From: Actinomycetota bacterium
GTDB lineage: Bacteria; Actinomycetota; UBA4738; HRBIN12
Assembly: GCA_034667405.1 (NCBI GenBank)
Contig: JAXDJX010000019.1
Span: 1,620-65,619 of the forward strand
DNA length: 64,000 nucleotides
Direction of reading: 5' to 3'
This document shows positions 1,061 through 58,956 of the stretch, one piece after another. The notes under the pieces were generated by a model. That model was not told the origin of the DNA, ran no database searches, and was given only the letters and a program-made list of their open reading frames with translations. Both the position numbers and the translations under genes were made by a program. Numbering within the stretch: position 1 is the first letter of the stretch; every line of letters starts with the position of its first letter.

Positions 1061-2743
1061 TCACTTCACCACCCTTGCGACCTCTTCGATGGAGGTAAGC
1101 CCCATCCGGGTCTTCTCGAGTCCGTCATCCCGCAGCGTCATCATCCCCTGCTGGATCGAGACAGCTTTGATCTGATCGGCGGAGGCCCGCTCGACCGTCA
1201 ATCGTTCGATCTCTTCACTCATCTGCATAACCTCATAGAGCCCGATGCGCCCGCGGTAGCCGGTGTTCGAACAGGCCGAGCATCCCGCGGGTCGGAACAA
1301 TTCCTTGATCTCGCTCCAGAGCCACTCGGGATAGCCGGCGAGCTGAAGTTGGGATTCCTCCGGGACGTAGGCCTCTTTGCAACGAACGCAGAGCTTTCGG
1401 GCGAGTCGCTGGGCGACCACACAGTCGATAGCCGAGGCAACGAGGAAGGTCTCCACGTCCATCTCGACGAGCCGGCTGATGGCGCTGGCGGAGTCGTTCG
1501 TGTGCAGGGACGACAGGACGAGGTGGCCGGTCAGGGCCGCTTCGATGGCGATGGTGGCCGTCTCTTTGTCCCGGATCTCACCGATGAGGACGATGTCGGG
1601 GTCGGCTCGCAGGATCGATCGCAAGGCACTGGCGAAGGTCAGGCCGGCCTTCGGGTTCACCTGCATCTGGTTGACGCCTGCGAGGCGGTACTCCACCGGG
1701 TCTTCGACGGTGATGATGTTCTTGTCTTCCTCGTTCAAGATGTTGAGGGTCGCGTACATCGACGTGGACTTGCCCGAACCCGTCGGTCCCGTCACCAGCA
1801 ATGCGCCGTAGGGCTTGCGGAAGGAGGTCTCGAAGCGCTTGTAGGCGTCTTCCATGAACCCGAGGTCTTCAAGGCGCAGGAGCGCGTTGGACTTGTCGAG
1901 GACTCGGATGACGACCTTCTCGCCGAACACCGTCGGCAGGGTCGCGACGCGGAGGTCGAGCTGCTTCCCGCCCACCCGCATGCTGATCCTGCCGTCTTGG
2001 GGAACGCGCTTCTCGGCGATGTTGAGGTCCGCCATGACCTTCAGCCGGCTGATGAGTCCGCCTTGGATGTTCTTCGGGCTGTGCATGACCTCGTGGAGCA
2101 CTCCGTCCACCCGGAATCGCACGCGGACGTCCTTCTCGGTGGGTTCGATGTGCACGTCGGAGGCACGGTCTCCGACTGCCTGGGTCATGATCGCCTGGAC
2201 CAGTTTGACGATCGGGGCTTCCTCAACGGCCGCCTCGATCTGAACGTCTGTGTCATCGGCCTGGTCGGCGGCTGCGGCGGAGAGCGCCTCGACCTGCCCG
2301 TCCATCCCGGAGAACTTCTGGATGGCCTGCTCGACATCGGCCGCGGTGGCGACCACGGGTTGCACGTCGCGGCCGGTGATTGTCCTGATGTCGTCCAACG
2401 CGTACACGTTCGCCGGGTCCGACATGGCGACCAAGAGCTTGCCGTCGCGATCGCCGATGGGGATGGCTCGATACCGACGTGCGAGCGCTTCGGGGAGCAG
2501 GGTGGTCGAACTGGGGTCGACTTGGAACTCGGACAGATCGACGAATTCGAGCCCGACCTGTTCGGCCAGAGCCCTGACCAGGTCCGTCTCCTTGATGAGG
2601 CCGAGGTCGATCAGGACGCGGCCGAGAGACTTCGGGGTCTTCCGATGCTCCTCCAGAGCTTGCTGGAGTTGCTCAGGGGTGATGAGCCCCTGTTCGATCA
2701 GGATCTGTCCGAGCTGCTTGGCCTTCCGTTTGACGGTTGTCAT
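1061..2743 (-). CDS. pilB: Type IV pilus assembly ATPase PilB / GspE family secretion ATPase
   Basis: 560 aa. Three N-terminal GSPII_E-N repeats (LGQILIEQGLITPEQLQQAL, LGRVLIDLGLIKETDL). C-terminal ATPase with Walker A GPTGSGKST and a CxxC...CxxC tetracysteine (CVRCK...CSACSNTGYRGR). Immediately upstream of pilT. Confidence 0.9.
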   Translation of the reverse strand: MTTVKRKAKQLGQILIEQGLITPEQLQQALEEHRKTPKSLGRVLIDLGLIKETDLVRALAEQVGLEFVDLSEFQVDPSSTTLLPEALARRYRAIPIGDRDGKLLVAMSDPANVYALDDIRTITGRDVQPVVATAADVEQAIQKFSGMDGQVEALSAAAADQADDTDVQIEAAVEEAPIVKLVQAIMTQAVGDRASDVHIEPTEKDVRVRFRVDGVLHEVMHSPKNIQGGLISRLKVMADLNIAEKRVPQDGRISMRVGGKQLDLRVATLPTVFGEKVVIRVLDKSNALLRLEDLGFMEDAYKRFETSFRKPYGALLVTGPTGSGKSTSMYATLNILNEEDKNIITVEDPVEYRLAGVNQMQVNPKAGLTFASALRSILRADPDIVLIGEIRDKETATIAIEAALTGHLVLSSLHTNDSASAISRLVEMDVETFLVASAIDCVVAQRLARKLCVRCKEAYVPEESQLQLAGYPEWLWSEIKELFRPAGCSACSNTGYRGRIGLYEVMQMSEEIERLTVERASADQIKAVSIQQGMMTLRDDGLEKTRMGLTSIEEVARVVK

Positions 2744-2785
2744 ATGCGCCCCATGAAGTCCATCCGGTGTAGGTCGTCAGAAGAT

Positions 2786-3523
2786 TCATTCGTCATCGTC
2801 GCCATCCATCTGAAGCAATCCCGAGAACTCTTTGGCGAGAAGCACCCGATCTACCTCGCCTTCGTCCTCGTCGGTGTCGATGCCCGCGGAACCGGCGAGC
2901 TTCTGCGGCTCCCTGCTCATGGCGGTCAGCGGTTGCTTCGGTTGCTCGGGCTCCTTCTGCTCCTCCGGCTCCGTCGGTTCCGGCGCCTCGATCATCGCCG
3001 GCGCGCTATCGCCCGGCGTCTCTGCGGGTTCGGTCCCCCCCGGCGAGGATGCCGTGCGCCCGCCCGGCCAGTTGCGTTCGACACCGGCGTTGACGTCGAC
3101 CTTCTCCTCCGCCGCAGCGGGGTGCAGGGTCGTCCTCGGCTTGCCGGAGGGGGCGGCGCCCAGCTCCGGGAGCTTCAGCGGTTCTCGTTTCGTGCGAGCC
3201 TCTTCGGCCGCGAGGAGCCCCTGCTCCATCATGTCCAGCAGGACCCCCGGGCGTACCGAGGTACCGGCGACGGCGAAGGATGAGTAGGCGCCCCGATGAC
3301 AGAAGACCCAGATCTGATCTGCGAACTCGACGAAGGAGCGTTCCGCATCGCCGAGCGCGGCGAAGCGCAGCCAGGCCGGCTTCGCTTGCATCTCGTCGTC
3401 CTCGGGGTAGGAGCCGAGGACCAGCCCGTCCCGGGACAAGATGAGACAGCTGCGAACATCGCCGACGCTGACCGCGACACGCTGAGCGAGCGCGGAATAG
3501 TCATCCATCTGTGTCTGTGGCAT
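2786..3523 (-). CDS. Roadblock/LC7 (MglB-like) domain protein with about 125-aa acidic/proline-rich disordered C-terminal tail
   Basis: N-terminal ~115 aa (LAQRVAVSVGDVRSCLILSRDGLVLGSYPEDDE...SSFAVAGTSVRPGVLLDMMEQ) has the roadblock/LC7 pattern. The remainder is low-complexity PE/TE-rich and ends in MDGDDDE. Only 43 bp upstream of pilB on the same strand. Assignment is by pattern recognition only. Confidence 0.5.
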   Translation of the reverse strand: MPQTQMDDYSALAQRVAVSVGDVRSCLILSRDGLVLGSYPEDDEMQAKPAWLRFAALGDAERSFVEFADQIWVFCHRGAYSSFAVAGTSVRPGVLLDMMEQGLLAAEEARTKREPLKLPELGAAPSGKPRTTLHPAAAEEKVDVNAGVERNWPGGRTASSPGGTEPAETPGDSAPAMIEAPEPTEPEEQKEPEQPKQPLTAMSREPQKLAGSAGIDTDEDEGEVDRVLLAKEFSGLLQMDGDDDE

Positions 3524-3574
3524 CGGCGGCCGGCACTCAAGCCTTGAATCGTTCGCTCGAGGGTGACGAACCGT

Positions 3575-4405
3575 CTAGAGGGCTGGGTCGTTCATCGCAG
3601 CGAGTGCGGCGGCCGACATCACATCCAGGGGCGCCGGACGCCCCGACCAGATCTCGAATGCGAGCGCCGCCTGGTGCAACAACAGCCCGACTCCCCCGAA
3701 CGCCGCCGCCCCCGCGGCCCTGGCGTTCGTCTGCAGCGGGGTGACTGCCGGGTGGTACTTGAGATCGACCACCATCATGCCCGGGGCATACGCGGGCTCG
3801 GGGGGTATCCCAACACCGTCGAAGCCGATCGGCGTGGCGTCGATGACCAGGTCGCCGTGCCACCCGGCTGCGTCGTCGAACGCGATGACATCAACGGGGG
3901 TTCCCAAGCCCTCGAGCGTTCCTTGGAGGCCCAGGGCCCGGGTGTGCTCCCGTACCGCAACGCTGATCCGGGACGCGCCGCCTTGTGCGAGGGCGAGCGC
4001 GCAGGCTCGAGCGGCTCCGCCGGCACCATAGATGAGCGCTGTCACCCCACGCGGGTCAAGGCCGGCATCCTGTCGGAGGAACCCGTCGAAGCCCGGTGCG
4101 TCGGTGTTGTGGCCGATCAGGTCGTCGCCTTGGATCTCGATCGTGTTGACGGCGTGCAAGCGGGCAGCCTCATCCGTGAGTCGAGCCGACAAGAGATCCG
4201 CGATCTCTGTCTTGTGGGGCATGGTGACGTTCGCTCCGGCAAGTCCCAGTGCGGTGATGGCGGCCACGGCCCTCCCGACGCTGCCGGGGGGCACCGGCAA
4301 AGGGACGTAGACCCAGTCCATCTCCAGTGCATCGAACGCGGCGTTGTGTATCGCCGGCGACAACGAGTGGGCGACGGGCCAGCCGATGATGCCGGCCACG
4401 CGGGT
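3575..4405 (-). CDS. aroE: Shikimate 5-dehydrogenase AroE
   Basis: Conserved N-terminus VAGIIGWPVAHSLSPAIHNAAF plus NVTMPHK and the GAGGAARA NADP-binding loop. The ORF-track 5-prime extension (MGCRPALS...) overlaps mltG and was rejected. Start set near 4405, approximate. Confidence 0.8.
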   Translation of the reverse strand, partial: TRVAGIIGWPVAHSLSPAIHNAAFDALEMDWVYVPLPVPPGSVGRAVAAITALGLAGANVTMPHKTEIADLLSARLTDEAARLHAVNTIEIQGDDLIGHNTDAPGFDGFLRQDAGLDPRGVTALIYGAGGAARACALALAQGGASRISVAVREHTRALGLQGTLEGLGTPVDVIAFDDAAGWHGDLVIDATPIGFDGVGIPPEPAYAPGMMVVDLKYHPAVTPLQTNARAAGAAAFGGVGLLLHQAALAFEIWSGRPAPLDVMSAAALAAMNDPAL

Positions 4406-44923: not shown

Positions 44924-45358
44924 CTACGAGGAGCCGGTGGAGCCGAATCCGCCCTCTCCACGCGCGCTCTCCGGCAGATCCTTCACCCACACCGGCGCCA
45001 CGACCGGCACGGCAACCAGCACCAGCTGCGCGATACGGTCCCCCACCGCGATCTCCACGGGCGTCGATCGATCCAGGTTCACCATCGCGCACATCACCTC
45101 GCCGCGGTAGCCCGCATCGATCAACCCCGGAGTGTTGGCCACGGTGAGGCCGTGTTTCGAGGCCAACCCCGATCTGGGAAGCACCAGCCCCGCATGCCCG
45201 TCGGGGATCGCGACAGCCACGCCGGTAGGGACCATCGCGCGCTCCCCCGGCGCGATGGTGAGGGCGATCGTCGATCGCAAATCTAGCCCGGCGTCGCCGG
45301 GGTGCTGGGCCTGGGGCAGCGCGGCCCCTTCGGTCAGTCGACGGAACGGAAGGTCCAC
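44924..45358 (-). CDS. dut: dUTP diphosphatase
   Basis: 144 aa with dUTPase motifs (AGLDL, PRSGLASKHG, GLIDAGYRGE, GERIAQL-like, RGEGGFGSTG). Confidence 0.9.
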   Translation of the reverse strand: MDLPFRRLTEGAALPQAQHPGDAGLDLRSTIALTIAPGERAMVPTGVAVAIPDGHAGLVLPRSGLASKHGLTVANTPGLIDAGYRGEVMCAMVNLDRSTPVEIAVGDRIAQLVLVAVPVVAPVWVKDLPESARGEGGFGSTGSS

Positions 45359-45360
45359 GG

Positions 45361-45729
45361 TTAGACCGGTTCGACGAGTTCGATGCGGTTGCCGAACGGA
45401 TCGCGAACGTAGCAGCGGCGGTAGTTCTCGAGCTGGACGGAATCCACCACGCGGTAGCCCGCCTCATCGATCCGTGCCCGCAGGCTCTCTAGTCCGTCGA
45501 CCAGGAAGGCAGGGTGGGCCTTGTGCGCCGGCTGGAACTGCTCCTCGACGCCCAGGTGGACCTCAAGGCCACCGCGGCGGAACCACACGCCACCTCGGGG
45601 AGCAAGCTGGGGCGGCTTCTCCACCTGGCTCAGACCCAGGACGTCCGCGTAGAACTTCACCGCGGCGGCCTCCTCGCCGGGCGGCATCGCGAGCTGCACA
45701 TGGTGCAGGCTCTCGAGTTGCCCCTCCAT
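45361..45729 (-). CDS. VOC family (glyoxalase/bleomycin-resistance fold) protein
   Basis: 122 aa. HHVQLAMPPGEEAAAVKFYADVLGL plus a C-terminal second beta-alpha-beta-beta-beta module (RDPFGNRIELVEP). Confidence 0.75.
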   Translation of the reverse strand: MEGQLESLHHVQLAMPPGEEAAAVKFYADVLGLSQVEKPPQLAPRGGVWFRRGGLEVHLGVEEQFQPAHKAHPAFLVDGLESLRARIDEAGYRVVDSVQLENYRRCYVRDPFGNRIELVEPV

Positions 45730-45804: not shown

Positions 45805-48570
45805 CTACGAGCAGCCGCTCGTAGAACCACAACTGGAGCAGACGTAGCACGATCCCGCCGGCTGCATCTTGGAACCGCACGAGTAGCAGAGCGGAGCGTC
45901 CAGGATCCTCGCCGACTGCCGCTCGGTGATCTCGATGGGTTGGGACATCTTCGGTGGCTCAGGCGCCTGCAACAGATCCTCGGACTCGCCGGCTTGGAGT
46001 TCGCCGAGCTTCTGGGCAGCCTCGGCCAGGGCCGTCTCTTTCCGCTCAGAGATCGAGCGGATCCCGAGTCCCTCCCGGGTCTCCTCGCTCAAATGATCGA
46101 GGGCGAGACGCCGGAACGTGTAGTCCAGGAGCGATGAGGCGAACCGGATGTCCGGGTCGTTGGTCATCCCCGACGGTTCGAACTTCATGTTGATGAACTT
46201 CGACACGAAGGTCTCCAGTGGCACCCCGTACTGCAGCCCGATGGAGATGGCGATCGAGAACGCATCCATCACTCCCGCGAGCGTCGAACCCTGCTTGGAC
46301 GTCTTGAGGAAGATCTCTCCCAGGCCATCGTCGGGGTAACTACCGGCCGTGATGTAGCCTTCGGCATCCCCCACCGCGAACGACGTGGTTCGGCTGGGGC
46401 GCGACATCGGCAGGCGCTTGCGGACCGGGGTGGCTAGCGTTGCGGGCTCGCCCGCATCCGCGGTGGCCGACTTCTTCTTGTCGGCCGACAGCGGCTGTGC
46501 AACCTTGCAGTTGTCGCGGTAGATGGCGACCGCTTTCAGCCCGAGCTTCCAGGATTCGATGAAGAGCTGCTCCACCTCTTCCACGGTCGCCGACTCCGGC
46601 ATGTTCACCGTCTTGGAGATGGCACCCGAGATGAACGGCTGTGCCACAGCCATCATCCGAACGTGCCCCATGTAGTGGATGGGCTCCGCTCCCATCGCCG
46701 TATCGAACACGGAGTAGTGCTCGGACTTCAGGTGCGGCGCATCGACAACCGAGTTGTGTTCGGCGATGTACCCGACGACGTCGTCGATCTGCCCAGCGTC
46801 GTAGCCGAGCTTGTCCAGCGCCCGCGGCACCGTCTGATTGACGAACTGCATGGTGCCACCGCCGACCAGCTTCTTCGTCTTCACGAGCGCCAGTTCGGGC
46901 TCGATGCCCGTGGTGTCGCAATCCATCATCAGGCCGATGGTGCCCGTGGGCGCCAGCACGCTGGCCTGTGCGTTGCGGTAGCCGTGCTTCTCGCCCAGGC
47001 TGATGGCCTCGTCCCACGCGTTCTTGGCTGAGGACAGGAGCGCCTCTGGCACGATGTCGCCGTCGATCGTGTCCACGGCCGCGCGGTGCTTGCGGATGAC
47101 GCGGAGCATGGCGTCGGCATTCGGTCGGTAGCCCTGGAACGGACCCATGGCGTCGGCGATCTTCGCGCTGGTTCGGTACGCGTGGCCGGTCATGAGCGCG
47201 GTGATGGCTCCGGCCCACGCGCGCCCACCGTCGGAGTCATACGCGAGCCCCCGCGCCATGAGGAGGGCGCCGAGGTTCGCGTATCCGAGGCCGAGCTGGC
47301 GGTAGGCCCGTGCGTTCTCACCGATCTTCTCGGTGGGGTAGCTGGACTCACCCACCAGGATCTCCTGCGCGGTGAAGACGACCTGGACCGCGTGCTTGAA
47401 GCTGGCCACGTCGAAGTTGCCCTCGTCGTCCAGGAACTTCATGAGGTTCAGCGATGCCAGGTTGCACGCGCTGTTATCCAGGTGCATGTACTCCGAGCAC
47501 GGGTTGGAACCGTTGATCCGTCCGCTGGCCGGGCACGTATGCCATTCGTTGATGGTGGTGTCGTACTGCATGCCGGGGTCGGCGCACTGCCACGCGGCCT
47601 CGGAGATCTGCCGCATGAGGTTCCGTGCGCGGACGGTGTGCACGGTCTCGTCGGTGGTGATGGCCTTGAGCTTCCAATCCTGATCCTGCTCGTACGCCTG
47701 CATGAACGCATCCGTCACGCGAACGGAGTTGTTCGCGTTCTGATACTGGATGGAGGCGCTGTCTTTGCCGTCGAGGTCCATGTCGAACCCGGCGTCGCGC
47801 AGGGCGCGGGCCTTCTGCTCTTCGTTGGATTTGCACCAGATGAAGTCCTCGACGTCGGGGTGATCGACGTTGAGGATGACCATCTTCGCGGCGCGCCGTG
47901 TCTTGCCGCCGGACTTGATGGTCCCGGCGGAGGCGTCGGCCCCGCGCATGAAGCTCACTGGACCCGAGGCGGTTCCGCCCCCGGCCAGCGTCTCCTTGGA
48001 CGAACGGATCTTCGACAGGTTGATCCCCGAACCCGAGCCGCCCTTGAAGATGGTGCCTTCTTCCACGTACCAGTTCAGGATCGAGCTCATGTGGTCGTCG
48101 ACCGCCAAGATGAAGCACGCTGAGCACTGCTGCGGGGTGTCGGGGACGCCGACGTTGAACCAGACCGGAGAGTTGAACGCAGCCTTCTGCGTGACGATGA
48201 GGTGGGTCAGTTCGTCGGCGAAGATCTGCGCGTCGTCCTTAGTGGCGAAGTACCCGTTCTTCTCCCCCCAGCCCCGGATCGTGTCGACGACCCTGCCGGC
48301 GAGCTGACGAACGGAGGTTTCGCGCTGCGGCGTGCCCAGGGTTCCGCGGAAATACTTCTGCGCGACGATGTTCGTCGCGTTCTGTGACCAGCTCTTCGGG
48401 AATTCGACATCCCGCTGTTCGAACGCGTTGCCACCCTCCTTGAAGTTCGGGATGACCGCGTCGCGGGTCTCCCATTCGACATCCTCGAACGGGTGGTGTC
48501 CCTCGCTGGTGAAGTACCGCTTGAAGGTCAATCCCTCCCGGATGACCTCCACATCCCCCTTGTTCGCCAT
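45805..48570 (-). CDS. nrdJ: Vitamin B12 (adenosylcobalamin)-dependent ribonucleoside-diphosphate reductase, class II
   Basis: 921 aa. RNR barrel with active-site Cys/Asn/Glu region (NPCSEYMHLDNSACNLASLNL), a radical Cys loop and a C-terminal Cys-rich tail CYSCGS...CYVCSSCGSTSGCS. Confidence 0.95.
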   Translation of the reverse strand: MANKGDVEVIREGLTFKRYFTSEGHHPFEDVEWETRDAVIPNFKEGGNAFEQRDVEFPKSWSQNATNIVAQKYFRGTLGTPQRETSVRQLAGRVVDTIRGWGEKNGYFATKDDAQIFADELTHLIVTQKAAFNSPVWFNVGVPDTPQQCSACFILAVDDHMSSILNWYVEEGTIFKGGSGSGINLSKIRSSKETLAGGGTASGPVSFMRGADASAGTIKSGGKTRRAAKMVILNVDHPDVEDFIWCKSNEEQKARALRDAGFDMDLDGKDSASIQYQNANNSVRVTDAFMQAYEQDQDWKLKAITTDETVHTVRARNLMRQISEAAWQCADPGMQYDTTINEWHTCPASGRINGSNPCSEYMHLDNSACNLASLNLMKFLDDEGNFDVASFKHAVQVVFTAQEILVGESSYPTEKIGENARAYRQLGLGYANLGALLMARGLAYDSDGGRAWAGAITALMTGHAYRTSAKIADAMGPFQGYRPNADAMLRVIRKHRAAVDTIDGDIVPEALLSSAKNAWDEAISLGEKHGYRNAQASVLAPTGTIGLMMDCDTTGIEPELALVKTKKLVGGGTMQFVNQTVPRALDKLGYDAGQIDDVVGYIAEHNSVVDAPHLKSEHYSVFDTAMGAEPIHYMGHVRMMAVAQPFISGAISKTVNMPESATVEEVEQLFIESWKLGLKAVAIYRDNCKVAQPLSADKKKSATADAGEPATLATPVRKRLPMSRPSRTTSFAVGDAEGYITAGSYPDDGLGEIFLKTSKQGSTLAGVMDAFSIAISIGLQYGVPLETFVSKFINMKFEPSGMTNDPDIRFASSLLDYTFRRLALDHLSEETREGLGIRSISERKETALAEAAQKLGELQAGESEDLLQAPEPPKMSQPIEITERQSARILDAPLCYSCGSKMQPAGSCYVCSSCGSTSGCS

Positions 48571-48599
48571 GTACCGCGCCCCCTTCCGATCCGTGCAGT

Positions 48600-48630
48600 T
48601 GTGGATGACCTGTGGATAGCCTGTGGATGA
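48600..48630. repeat. Three phased DnaA-box-like 9-mers in the nrdJ leader
   Basis: Plus strand TGTGGATGA (48600-08), TGTGGATAG (48611-19), TGTGGATGA (48622-30). The coding-strand complements are TCATCCACA / CTATCCACA / TCATCCACA versus consensus TTATCCACA. Head-to-tail with an 11-bp period, 30-60 nt upstream of the nrdJ ATG. Confidence 0.5.
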
Positions 48631-48715
48631 CTTACAACCGTGTCATTCGCAAGCTCCGGGATTGTGTCCCTCCGGAGCCCCGAGGTCAAGATGTCGTGGC
48701 AGGAAAGTTTGTCAA

Positions 48716-48730
48716 CCACTACAGGTAGTA
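48716..48730. promoter_or_regulatory. Palindrome (weaker NrdR-box-like) in nrdR-nrdJ intergenic region
   Basis: CACTACAGGTAGTAT, a 6-2-6 inverted repeat (ACTAC-AG-GTAGT) about 150 nt upstream of nrdJ. Confidence 0.35.
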
Positions 48731-48799
48731 TCTCACCTCGGCAGCCATATGAGCGAAATGGCTCGATGGAGCTACCGAAACGACGTTCCCAGGGCGTGG

Positions 48800-49273
48800 T
48801 CAGCGGCCGCGGCGCTTCGCCGGGATCTTCTTCTGGAGCACACCGAGTTCGCGTTCGAAGTCGGTGATCTCCTGGAAGTCCTTGTAGACGCTCGCGAACC
48901 GCATGTAGGCGACCTGGTCGAGCTTGGCCAGGCCGGCGAGGACCTCGACGCCGATCTGCTCCGAAGAGACCTCGGGCCCCTTGCGCCGCACCCGCTCCTC
49001 CACCCGGTCCACCAGGACGTGGACCCGATCCACCGTGACGGGGCGGTTCTTGATGGCCTTCATCACGCTCCCGATGATCTTGTCCCGGTCGAAGACATCC
49101 TTCGAGCCGTCCCGTTTCACGACGACCAGCCCGACGTCCTCGACGCGCTCGAACGTGGTGTACCGGCGCGTACAGCCGGCGCACTCCCGCCGTCGGCGGA
49201 TGGCCAGGCCGTTGTCCGCGGGGCGGGAATCCACGACCCGGTCGTCGTCGGCATTGCACCAAGGGCATCGCAT
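48800..49273 (-). CDS. nrdR: Transcriptional repressor NrdR
   Basis: MRCPWCNADDDRVVDSRPADNG...CAGCTRRYTTFE zinc ribbon plus ATP-cone (KRDGSKDVFDRDKI). The shorter internal start was chosen over the track start at 49312. Confidence 0.9.
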   Translation of the reverse strand: MRCPWCNADDDRVVDSRPADNGLAIRRRRECAGCTRRYTTFERVEDVGLVVVKRDGSKDVFDRDKIIGSVMKAIKNRPVTVDRVHVLVDRVEERVRRKGPEVSSEQIGVEVLAGLAKLDQVAYMRFASVYKDFQEITDFERELGVLQKKIPAKRRGR

Positions 49274-49280
49274 CGCCAGC

Positions 49281-49295
49281 CACAATATCTTGTGT
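49281..49295. promoter_or_regulatory. NrdR box candidate upstream of nrdR
   Basis: CACAATATCTTGTGT, an imperfect 15-16 bp palindrome resembling the NrdR-box consensus acaCwAtATaTwGtgt. About 8 nt upstream of the nrdR ATG. Coordinates approximate. Confidence 0.6.
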
Positions 49296-49338
49296 CGACG
49301 CGTGCGGTGCACCCGACATCTGGGCCTTCCCGCCGGGC

Positions 49339-49623
49339 TCAGGCCGAGGCCGGGACGGACAGACGCTCTCCCGGCACCACGGTCGGAGCCGGGAGGCCGT
49401 TGGCGCGCTGGATCTCCTCGATCACGAGCCGGGGATCCGCGTCTGGCTGAACCGTTCGGGCGATGCTCCAGAGGCTGTCTCCGCGCTGCACCACGTAGTG
49501 ATGGACCTGGGGTCGTTCCGGGCCCGAGAAAGCATGCGCCACAGGTCCTGTCATCATGCCGACGAAGATGCTCGCCCCGATGAGAACCGTTAGGCGGCGC
49601 CGGCGAACATGTGTTCGATGCAT
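49339..49623 (-). CDS. LysM domain protein (Rv2719c-like SOS-associated cell-wall protein)
   Basis: Start about 49623 (MHRTHVRRRRL then TM LTVLIGASIFVGMM). C-terminal LysM (YVVQRGDSLWSIARTV...EEIQRANGL). Divergent from lexA with LexA boxes in between. Confidence 0.65.
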   Translation of the reverse strand: MHRTHVRRRRLTVLIGASIFVGMMTGPVAHAFSGPERPQVHHYVVQRGDSLWSIARTVQPDADPRLVIEEIQRANGLPAPTVVPGERLSVPASA

Positions 49624-49637
49624 GGGACGATGGTGCC

Positions 49638-49653
49638 CGAACGAGCGTTCGAC
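49638..49653. promoter_or_regulatory. LexA box in lexA/LysM divergent promoter region (site 2)
   Basis: cCGAACGAGCGTTCGAc, a perfect inverted repeat CGAAC-N4-GTTCG about 15-30 nt upstream of the proposed LysM gene start. Coordinates approximate. Confidence 0.7.
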
Positions 49654-49665
49654 GTCAAGTGTTTG

Positions 49666-49681
49666 CTCGAACATATGTTTG
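49666..49681. promoter_or_regulatory. LexA box in lexA/LysM divergent promoter region (site 1)
   Basis: cTCGAACATATGTTTGc, about 55 nt upstream of the lexA ATG. Left half perfect, right half GTTTGC. Coordinates approximate. Confidence 0.7.
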
Positions 49682-49736
49682 CCTCCCGTATAGGTGCGTG
49701 CTAGCGTCCGATCCTGCGAATAGGAGGCTAGAGACC

Positions 49737-57612: not shown

Positions 57613-58956
57613 CTAGGCGAAGACCGCGGCGGGAGCAGGGACCACGCGGCCGCGCAAGTGATGTGCCGCCGTATCAACGACCTCCGCCCAGACGAACGTC
57701 CCAGGATCCAGCGGCTCCGGAAGATGCACGATGCGGTTGGTGCGCGTCCGCGATTGCGTCGATAGACCCTTGCGGTCTCCTCCCTCGACCAGCACCTCGA
57801 CGATGGATCCGAGCTGCGCTGCGGACGCCTCCTCCGAGATCGCGGTCTGAAGTTCCAGGAGACGGTCGAACCGCTCCTGAACGATCTCCTTGGGGATCTG
57901 GTCGTCGAAGTTGGCGGCCCGCGTGCCGGGGCGTGGGGAGTATTGGAACATGAAGGCACTGTCGAACCGGGCTGTTCGGACGGTCTCCAAGGTCTCGGCG
58001 AAGTCGGCCTCGGTCTCCCCCGGGAATCCCACGATGACATCGGTTGAGACGGCGACGTGGGGAATGGCCGCGCGGATGGCATCGAGCCAGCCCAGGTACC
58101 GCTCGCGTCGGTAGGACCGTTGCATGGCCTTGAGGACGCGATCCGACCCCGACTGAAGCGGGAAATGGATGTGTTCACAGACGTTCTCGCATCCCGCCAT
58201 GGCGTCGATCACATCTGGTGTGAAGTCGTGCGGGTGCGGACTCGTGAACCTGATCCTTCGGATCCCCTCGACGTTGTTGACCTCCCGCAGCAGCGTGGCG
58301 AACAGGGGCTTGTTGGGCGAGTCGGGGACGGTCACATCTCGGCCGAACGTGTTGACGTTCTGACCCAGCAGGGTCACCTCGACGACGCCCTTGGAAACGA
58401 GCCCCTGCACCTCGGCCAAGATGTCCCCGATGCCCCGTGACCGCTGCGGACCTCGGACGAACGGCACGATGCAGAACGTGCAGGCGTTGTCACAACCCGG
58501 CGCGATGGATACCCAAGCTCTGAAGCTATCCTGCCGAACCGCCGGCAGGGCACTGGGGAACAGTTCCGTGTAGTCCCTCACGTCCATCTGTGGACCGTCC
58601 TCTTCCGCTGCTCTAAGGAGGTCCATGAGGCGGGGCAGCGCGTGGGTCCCGATCACGACGTCTACCCACGGCGCCCGTTCCTGGATCAGACCTTGATCCT
58701 TCTGCGCGAGACAACCGGCGACGACGATCCGCAGCGAGGGGTTCTCTTCCTTGAGCGGCTTGAGATGCCCCAGGTTGCCGTAGAGCTTGTTGTCCGCGTT
58801 CTCGCGGATGGCGCACGTGTTCAACACGATGACCTGTGCCTGCGAGGCATCCCGCGTCGGCGCCATCCCCTCGGCCACGAGGACGCCGGCGATGCGCTCG
58901 GAATCGTGCTCATTCATCTGGCACCCGAAGGTGCGGATCAGGTACTTCGGCTCCAT
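57613..58956 (-). CDS. miaB: tRNA-2-methylthio-N6-dimethylallyladenosine synthase (radical SAM methylthiotransferase)
   Basis: 447 aa. UPF0004 N-terminal domain with three Cys, radical SAM CDNACTFC, TRAM C-terminus. Confidence 0.9.
   Translation of the reverse strand: MEPKYLIRTFGCQMNEHDSERIAGVLVAEGMAPTRDASQAQVIVLNTCAIRENADNKLYGNLGHLKPLKEENPSLRIVVAGCLAQKDQGLIQERAPWVDVVIGTHALPRLMDLLRAAEEDGPQMDVRDYTELFPSALPAVRQDSFRAWVSIAPGCDNACTFCIVPFVRGPQRSRGIGDILAEVQGLVSKGVVEVTLLGQNVNTFGRDVTVPDSPNKPLFATLLREVNNVEGIRRIRFTSPHPHDFTPDVIDAMAGCENVCEHIHFPLQSGSDRVLKAMQRSYRRERYLGWLDAIRAAIPHVAVSTDVIVGFPGETEADFAETLETVRTARFDSAFMFQYSPRPGTRAANFDDQIPKEIVQERFDRLLELQTAISEEASAAQLGSIVEVLVEGGDRKGLSTQSRTRTNRIVHLPEPLDPGTFVWAEVVDTAAHHLRGRVVPAPAAVFA

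Follow-up and report, generated by a model that had tools for sequence, protein, structure and literature searches.

Regulation of E. coli nrdAB by the replication initiator DnaA is the established, textbook case in which dNTP supply is tied to the start of replication, and similar control of reductase genes has been suggested for Bacillus subtilis and Caulobacter crescentus (PMC8203912); the original prediction had counted all three systems as established, which holds for E. coli only. Here, we describe a candidate DnaA-box array in 64,000 nt of DNA from an Actinomycetota bacterium (contig JAXDJX010000019.1, positions 1,620 to 65,619 of the forward strand; this whole stretch is the window, and all positions refer to it). 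The array is located in the leader of nrdJ, which encodes a class II ribonucleotide reductase. As at E. coli nrdAB, three DnaA-box sequences stand beside a reductase promoter under predicted NrdR control, a setting in which coupling of deoxynucleoside triphosphate supply to replication initiation is expected (PMC8203912). Unlike E. coli nrdAB, the reductase is of class II and the organism is an uncultured actinobacterium. The boxes run head-to-tail every 11 bp downstream of the predicted transcription start, whereas those of E. coli lie in the promoter region and, in relatives of the window, the first box overlaps the second NrdR box of the operator, another difference from E. coli. The low-affinity DnaA arrays found at the replication origins (oriC) of E. 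coli and actinobacteria provide a second parallel, since they share one orientation, close spacing and one helical face, a layout that suits oligomer growth (PMC4285127). Actinobacterial origins also present the same box variants and a same-strand triplet spaced 11 and 11 bp. In contrast to origin arrays, the nrdJ array is off-origin, with no unwinding element, dnaA or dnaN nearby, and consists of three boxes on the coding strand only. The original prediction regarded DnaA at actinobacterial nrdJ as undescribed and, in agreement with this, our literature searches found no account of DnaA boxes at nrdJ or nrdRJ of actinobacteria.

The three repeats lie head-to-tail with a start-to-start spacing of exactly 11 bp, 30-60 nt 5' of the nrdJ ATG. 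The L numbers used below are labels of fetched comparison loci.

48622..48630, minus strand: box A, TCATCCACA, followed by GG; invariant in relatives L162-L164
48611..48619, minus strand: box B, CTATCCACA, followed by GG; kept in L162 and L163, degenerate (CTTTCCACC) in L164
48600..48608, minus strand: box C, TCATCCACA, followed by AC; TCATCCACA in L162 and L164, ACATCCACA in L163
Leader on the minus (coding) strand, 5' to 3': ...gcgaatgacacggttgtaag TCATCCACA gg CTATCCACA gg TCATCCACA actgcacggatc GGAAGGGGG cgcggtac ATG

Each box presents one mismatch to TTATCCACA and two to TTGTCCACA, and the spacing, the distance from the nrdJ start and the mismatch counts first reported for the three 9-mers were confirmed. 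Tandem Repeats Finder detected a period-11 array of 2.9 copies at 48600-48631. The pattern YYATCCACA occurs five times in the window (1.0 expected), three of them being the boxes of the nrdJ leader, while the composite ATCCACA-N4-ATCCACA-N4-ATCCACA, allowing up to three mismatches, is unique within the window to this leader (0.01 expected). No second copy of the array was found elsewhere in the 64 kb. The repeat triplet is real and far beyond chance. On balance, and with no more than moderate confidence, we take the three repeats to be DnaA boxes of medium or low affinity that share one orientation and one helical phase; such an array would influence transcription from a position 3' of the start site.

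The first line of evidence is the motif itself. A logo built from 25 boxes in 11 independent loci shows T1 in 17, T2 in 19, a free third position, T4 in 23, C5 in 24, C6 in 22, A7 in 21, C8 in all 25 and A9 in 20, followed by gg, which reads TTnTCCACA(gg). TTnTCCACA, with a degenerate third position, is the DnaA-box consensus of E. coli, Mycobacterium and Streptomyces (PMC4285127, Table 1). The description of the 9-mers as DnaA-box-like was thus upheld down to the degenerate position. We then compared the boxes with DNA around dnaA in four genera other than that of the source organism (Nonomuraea, Arthrobacter, Nocardia and Tsukamurella), using sequences from PLSDB (NZ_LT559118.1, NZ_AP024649.1, NZ_LN868939.1 and NZ_LR134456.1; loci L171-L175). 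The rpmH-dnaA and dnaA-dnaN intergenic stretches of the four genera, 4.4 kb altogether, contain 40 TCCACA cores, that is, 4.5 per kb per strand. The flanks of these cores (T1 40%, T2 45%, G10 60%, G11 45%) closely resemble the flanks seen in nrd leaders. The window 11-mer containing box A, TCATCCACAGG, appears verbatim upstream of dnaA in Arthrobacter and, in Tsukamurella, both upstream of dnaA and in oriC (dnaA-dnaN); the one containing box B, CTATCCACAGG, appears verbatim in the Tsukamurella oriC. The Nonomuraea oriC carries three boxes on the same strand, spaced 11 and 11 bp. This comparison indicates that genuine actinobacterial DnaA-box clusters share the triplet layout, the TC/CT variants and the GG flank with the nrdJ leader.

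Two side observations were made on the origin sequences. Several PLSDB records labelled 'plasmid' are chromosomal, whole or in part, and carry dnaA, dnaN and oriC, an example being the 11.85-Mb 'plasmid I' of Nonomuraea gerenzanensis. In addition, six DnaA-box-like 9-mers of the Nonomuraea locus L171 (2754-2928) lie inside the longest possible dnaA frame (2209-4029), implying either that dnaA starts far downstream or that the boxes are within its 5' coding region.

The second line of evidence is conservation. The nearest species representative shares 87% NrdJ identity, and all three of the closest relatives, L162-L164 (NrdJ identity 92-94%), retain the triplet. When these were aligned with the window, 25 out of 31 columns of boxes A-C were invariant, as were 16 out of 18 columns of a palindrome located 5' of box A, against 2 out of 12 between box C and the ribosome-binding site, 7 out of 12 between the -10 element and the palindrome and 7 out of 17 in the -35/-10 spacer. 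Among 26 related leaders (NrdJ identity at least 76%), TTNTCCACA with at most one mismatch was found 22 times on the coding strand and twice on the other strand, compared to 0.7 in shuffles, and the gaps between adjacent matches were all 11, 22 or 33 bp. The number of same-strand boxes ranged from 0 to 4 per leader, with arrays of 1-4 in about half of the 26. L002 and L003 carry four boxes, a perfect TTGTCCACA included; L087 has one box, a perfect TTATCCACA; and L169 presents an independent three-box array elsewhere in its leader. A single box is conserved in four relatives (L085, L087, L091 and L094). The expectation that orthologous nrdJ leaders would conserve the repeats therefore holds for the closest relatives and fails for about half of the clade. 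Two further loci showed DnaA-box-like sequences in other settings. In L139 (~145-200), a perfect TTGTCCACA lies within the 27-nt linker between NrdR boxes ACACAACATATAGTGG and CCACAACATCTTGTGG, and in L144 five DnaA-box-like 9-mers are spread over both strands at a distance of 140-250 nt from nrdJ, on its upstream side.

The third line of evidence comes from classical actinomycetes such as Actinoplanes, Nocardioides and Flexivirga, where TCCACA-N5-TCCACA is likewise found, without mismatch, upstream of nrdR. No box enrichment was detected in the 250 nt upstream of nrdJ of 80 loci from GTDB, a null result that is misleading because the promoter of the nrdRJ operon lies upstream of nrdR. The classical nrdRJ leaders follow the order promoter (-35 TTGCGn, -10 TAnnnT), NrdR box 1, conserved palindromic 15-nt linker and NrdR box 2. 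Across the 66 classical nrdR leaders analysed, NrdR-like boxes contained 31 of the TCCACA cores on the coding strand, while outside such boxes the core was found 38 times on the coding strand and 5 times on the other strand. The density of the 38 outside boxes was 2.3 per kb, compared to a background of 0.19. Only 2 of the 38 have T11 (NrdR numbering), indicating that they are not NrdR boxes; GG comes next in 25-26 of them, often with TCC(A/C)CA 11 nt later. When all pairwise distances between classical boxes were considered, the best period was 10.8 bp (R = 0.77), and none of 2000 random sets reached as high a value. The spacing of 11 and 11 bp in the window, the multiples of 11 bp in the clade and the 10.8-bp phase in classical loci together form a site layout suited to cooperative binding.

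Several observations weigh against a DnaA-box array. About half of the clade leaders have no boxes, including L081, L082, L084, L086 and L100, which share 86-91% N-terminal identity, and the array is therefore dispensable and evolutionarily labile. Position 3 of the boxes shows no preference for the actinobacterial G. Boxes of oriC lie on both strands, whereas those of nrd leaders are almost all on the coding strand, and adjacent oriC cores are 9-12 bp apart instead of the strict 11 bp of the nrdJ leader. An architecture of 11-bp direct repeats is common to OmpR-family regulators and CarH. Furthermore, the core TCCACA supplies exactly the NrdR-critical positions C4, A6 and A8; window sequence TGACACGGTTGTAAGTCATCCACAGG matches the Actinoplanes 'linker plus left half of box 2' at 23 out of 26 positions; and both flanks, T-rich on the 5' side and GG on the 3' side, may in part have come along with a duplication instead of having been selected for DnaA. 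Altogether, the proposal of three same-face DnaA sites in an architecture for cooperative binding is supported by sequence, phase and conservation in the closest leaders, and is weakened by the lability of the boxes and the possible origin from an NrdR half-site.

To weigh this origin, the elements of the nrdR-nrdJ locus need to be considered. Both gene names, nrdJ (class II) and upstream nrdR, were upheld by protein family matches.

48800..49273, minus strand: nrdR, start ATGCGATGCCC at 49273; TIGR00244 match from residue 14 of a 170-aa open reading frame (ORF)
48716..48731, minus strand: NrdR box 1, ATACTACCTGTAGTGG; 5/6 key positions; 14/16 columns invariant
48684..48699, minus strand: NrdR box 2, CCACGACATCTTGACC; 6/6 key positions; 15/16 columns invariant; overlaps the -35 element
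48661..48689, minus strand: predicted sigma-70-type promoter; -35 TTGACC at 48689..48684, 17-nt spacer, -10 CACAAT at 48666..48661
48629..48648, minus strand: imperfect palindrome GAATGACACGGTTGTAAGTC, core TNAC-N6-GTNA; between the -10 and the repeats, abutting box A
48579..48587, minus strand: nrdJ ribosome-binding site, GGAAGGGGG; 8 nt before the ATG
45805..48570, minus strand: nrdJ, class II (vitamin-B12-dependent) ribonucleotide reductase, 921 aa, ATG at 48570; NF005122, 1488 bits

The 230-bp nrdR-nrdJ intergenic region holds a canonical NrdR operator, whose two boxes are separated by a linker of the canonical length, 16 bp. Key positions were scored as C4, A6, A8, T9, T11 and G13 (criteria from PMC13584703). 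The predicted nrdJ promoter is the sole promoter-like match in 48400-49700 (0.1 expected), and among relatives its -10 is invariant while the -35/-10 spacer is variable. It would place the transcription start at about 48654 and the boxes at about +25 to +55. The array is thus positioned after the conserved palindrome, downstream of the predicted NrdR-controlled promoter and in DNA encoding the nrdJ 5' leader. Of the dual NrdR/DnaA input suggested originally, the NrdR half is now concrete, with a canonical box pair (48731..48684) over the predicted -35. Since this two-box operator overlaps the predicted nrdJ promoter, dual input at nrdJ is plausible from the site arrangement.

The same operator gives rise to the first rival explanation, in which the left half of an NrdR box was amplified in tandem and the copies either recruit extra NrdR, extending the repressor complex downstream of the promoter, or persist as functionless echoes of an ancestral box 2. 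We consider this explanation improbable, even though the sequences do speak for a common origin. The box 2 sequences of classical actinomycetes, (TC)ATCCACAGGTTGGGG, CATCCACAGGTTGGGG or AGTCCACAGGTTGTGG, have TCCACA at positions 3-8; in many of these bacteria this TCCACA, the left half of the box, is the first of a series that continues with further TCCACAGG boxes. The left half of NrdR box 2 is already a DnaA-box sequence in many actinomycetes. The further TCCACA boxes stand ~32, 42, 53 and 65 bp from box 2, overlapping the NrdR-compatible spacings of 31-32 and 42-43 bp, and arrays are accompanied by NrdR boxes in every case. In the window, box A and the preceding 15 nt are homologous to the linker and the left half of box 2, so box A most likely descended from an NrdR half-box. 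Under the DnaA reading, too, the array probably originated when the TCCACAGG left half of the ancestral box 2 was amplified in steps of 11 bp.

Descent from a half-site is, however, distinct from function as an NrdR site. NrdR binds each palindromic box through a pair of Zn-ribbons, kinking the central AT and needing both GC pairs, with boxes about three helical turns apart (PMC9110341), and NrdR affinity falls 50- to 60-fold when the two conserved GC pairs of box 1, or one GC pair in each box, are inverted (PMC9110341; PMC13584703). The repeat units share the C4, A6, A8 half-site with a genuine operator located 55-100 bp upstream, but they differ from that operator, with its 16-bp palindromic boxes and 15-16-bp linker, in being direct 11-bp repeats that lack the right half and the central AT kink site. 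Of T9, T11 and G13, unit A has none and units B and C have one each. The units score 3/6, 4/6 and 4/6 at the key positions, with G13 in none, and are not canonical NrdR sites. As they start 11 bp apart, they do not follow the NrdR pair rule of a 15-16 or 26-27 bp linker. The scarcity of T11 in the classical boxes outside NrdR sites points in the same direction. Moreover, T3, C5, C7 and G9/G10 (NrdR numbering) are conserved in the repeats, are not NrdR preferences and are absent from box 1 sequences. A neutral relic is likewise disfavoured, given that the boxes are conserved while the spacers diverge.

A second explanation, which we also find unlikely, is that the repeats form the operator of another protein that binds 11-bp direct repeats, such as an OmpR/PhoB-family regulator resembling PhoP of M. 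tuberculosis or an adenosylcobalamin-dependent repressor of the CarH/LitR type. M. tuberculosis PhoP recognises TCACAGC repeats with a strict 4-bp spacer, that is, an 11-bp period, and binds more tightly to arrays of three or four repeats (PMC4832192), while CarH tetramers occupy three or four tandem 11-bp repeats nnnnTnnACAn (PMC9304148). Like these operators, the nrdJ leader has direct repeats of 11 bp, here three in immediate succession, whose core reads CACAG or TnnACA. For PhoP, CCACAGG matches TCACAGC at 5 out of 7 positions and both the T-rich spacer and the period fit; for CarH, all three window units fit nnnnTnnACAn, with T at position 5 and ACA at 8-10. If true, the CarH alternative would tie B12 or light to a B12-dependent reductase. 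Nevertheless, the conserved positions exceed both motifs, C5 and C6 being 'n' for CarH and T4 being spacer for PhoP, and in combination they reproduce the DnaA consensus together with the flank statistics of oriC. A monomeric binder is suited by the four relatives that keep a single box, and the phasing extends over non-adjacent boxes up to ~95 bp apart. No response regulator, MerR/B12-binding gene or dnaA was found by Pfam among the called ORFs of the 64-kb window, which leaves PhoP- or CarH-like binders with no cognate regulator nearby. The placement relative to the promoter also differs, as the boxes are downstream of the predicted promoter whereas CarH operators cover the -35 or -10. The alternative of another direct-repeat regulator, already raised in the original prediction, is thus supported by the 11-bp layout and opposed by the extra conserved positions that match the DnaA box. 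MtrA was considered separately and rejected: its motifs GTCACAGCG and G/T-T-G/A-A-C-C-N5-GTKAC were compared and the repeats do not fit.

A role at the RNA level, with the repeats forming a structured leader or being recognised by an RNA-binding protein, is very improbable: the boxes do lie within the predicted 5' untranslated region, almost all on the coding strand, and a conserved CTTCCCC of many related leaders could pair with the ribosome-binding site, but the folding of the nrdJ leader RNA is no better than that of shuffled sequences (z = +0.65), Rfam gave no match to the leader at the gathering threshold or at E <= 10, the arms of the palindrome have a variable position without covariation, and a 10.8-bp phase maintained across tens of bp is a property of double-helical DNA. 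The CTTCCCC element is an observation in its own right. It is located 20-60 nt before a GGAGGGG or GGAAGGGG ribosome-binding site in many related leaders (L081, L082, L085, L087, L088, L090, L094, L097, L004 and L111), where its sequence suggests that it may be an anti-Shine-Dalgarno element; the window leader does not contain it.

The palindrome that abuts box A also deserves attention. TNAC-N6-GTNA palindromes were present upstream of nrdJ in 67 out of 161 fetched loci and, under a strict definition, 31 out of 36 occurrences in 1.09 Mb were at most 320 nt upstream of nrdJ. The element takes the forms TTACA-N4-TGTAA and AATCAC-N6-GTGATT and its placement differs by lineage; the L027 copy is at ~1703-1717. 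As the variable arm position shows no covariation, the palindrome looks like a protein operator, putatively. In classical actinomycetes, the palindrome TTACA-N4-TGTAAG constitutes the 15-nt linker between the NrdR boxes, a linker that published work describes as constrained in length and not in sequence. The palindrome is almost exclusive to nrdJ and nrdRJ regulatory regions and, in classical actinomycetes, coincides with this NrdR linker. The only perfect copy in the window of the N5-spaced palindrome pattern, at 58209, was discarded, as it falls within the coding sequence of a radical-SAM (MiaB-like) protein, probably by chance.

Other features surround the locus:

49281-49296, minus strand: single NrdR-like box, ACACAAGATATTGTGG, directly 5' of the nrdR start (ATG at 49273)
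45729..45361, minus strand: glyoxalase-fold gene, 3' of nrdJ (Pfam match)
45358..44924, minus strand: dut (dUTPase), following the glyoxalase-fold gene (Pfam match)

No second NrdR box is visible 31-32 bp from the ACACAAGATATTGTGG box near the nrdR start, and nrdR is called at 157 aa on the source contig. The gaps are 75 nt between nrdJ and the glyoxalase-fold gene and 2 nt between the latter and dut, with the same gene order in L161-L170. This conservation of gene order in all close relatives suggests that nrdJ, the glyoxalase-fold gene and dut are probably one operon. Pfam analysis of the ~50 called ORFs of the window revealed housekeeping genes (recA-recX-rny-miaB-miaA ... hflX-lexA-LysM-nrdR-nrdJ-dut, ruvABC, secDF, relA and tRNA synthetases). 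Three LexA SOS boxes, TCGAACACATGTTCG, TCGAACGCTCGTTCG and AAACATATGTTCG, were observed at 49604-49680, in the divergent region between lexA and the LysM gene just upstream of nrdR.

If the repeats are a DnaA-box array, abundant DnaA-ATP would bind them cooperatively, head-to-tail, along one face of the helix. The bound oligomer would hinder promoter escape or elongation into the nrdJ-glyoxalase-dut operon, in a manner comparable to E. coli nrdAB (PMC8203912), and the block would be relieved when DnaA-ATP drops after initiation. NrdR at the promoter would add a feedback of its own, set by the dATP/ATP ratio. DnaA could act here either as a repressor or as an activator. A more tentative proposal, to which we give somewhat less than an even chance, is an interlock common to actinobacteria in which a phased DnaA-box array extends from inside NrdR box 2 or, as here, follows the palindrome of a third factor. 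DnaA-ATP, NrdR loaded with both dATP and ATP, and the palindrome binder would jointly set expression of the class II operon, and the array would serve as an ultrasensitive sensor of DnaA-ATP.

A DnaA-box array at nrdJ would extend the link between DnaA and ribonucleotide reductase to a distant phylum and to another reductase class, and it would predict that DnaA and NrdR compete or cooperate at box 2. The same pattern is seen in different actinomycete orders, with Actinoplanes, Nocardioides, Arsenicicoccus, Pedococcus and Flexivirga as culturable carriers of the array. The recurrence of these arrays in many actinobacteria suggests that the synthesis of DNA precursors may be wired to the initiation of replication in these bacteria.

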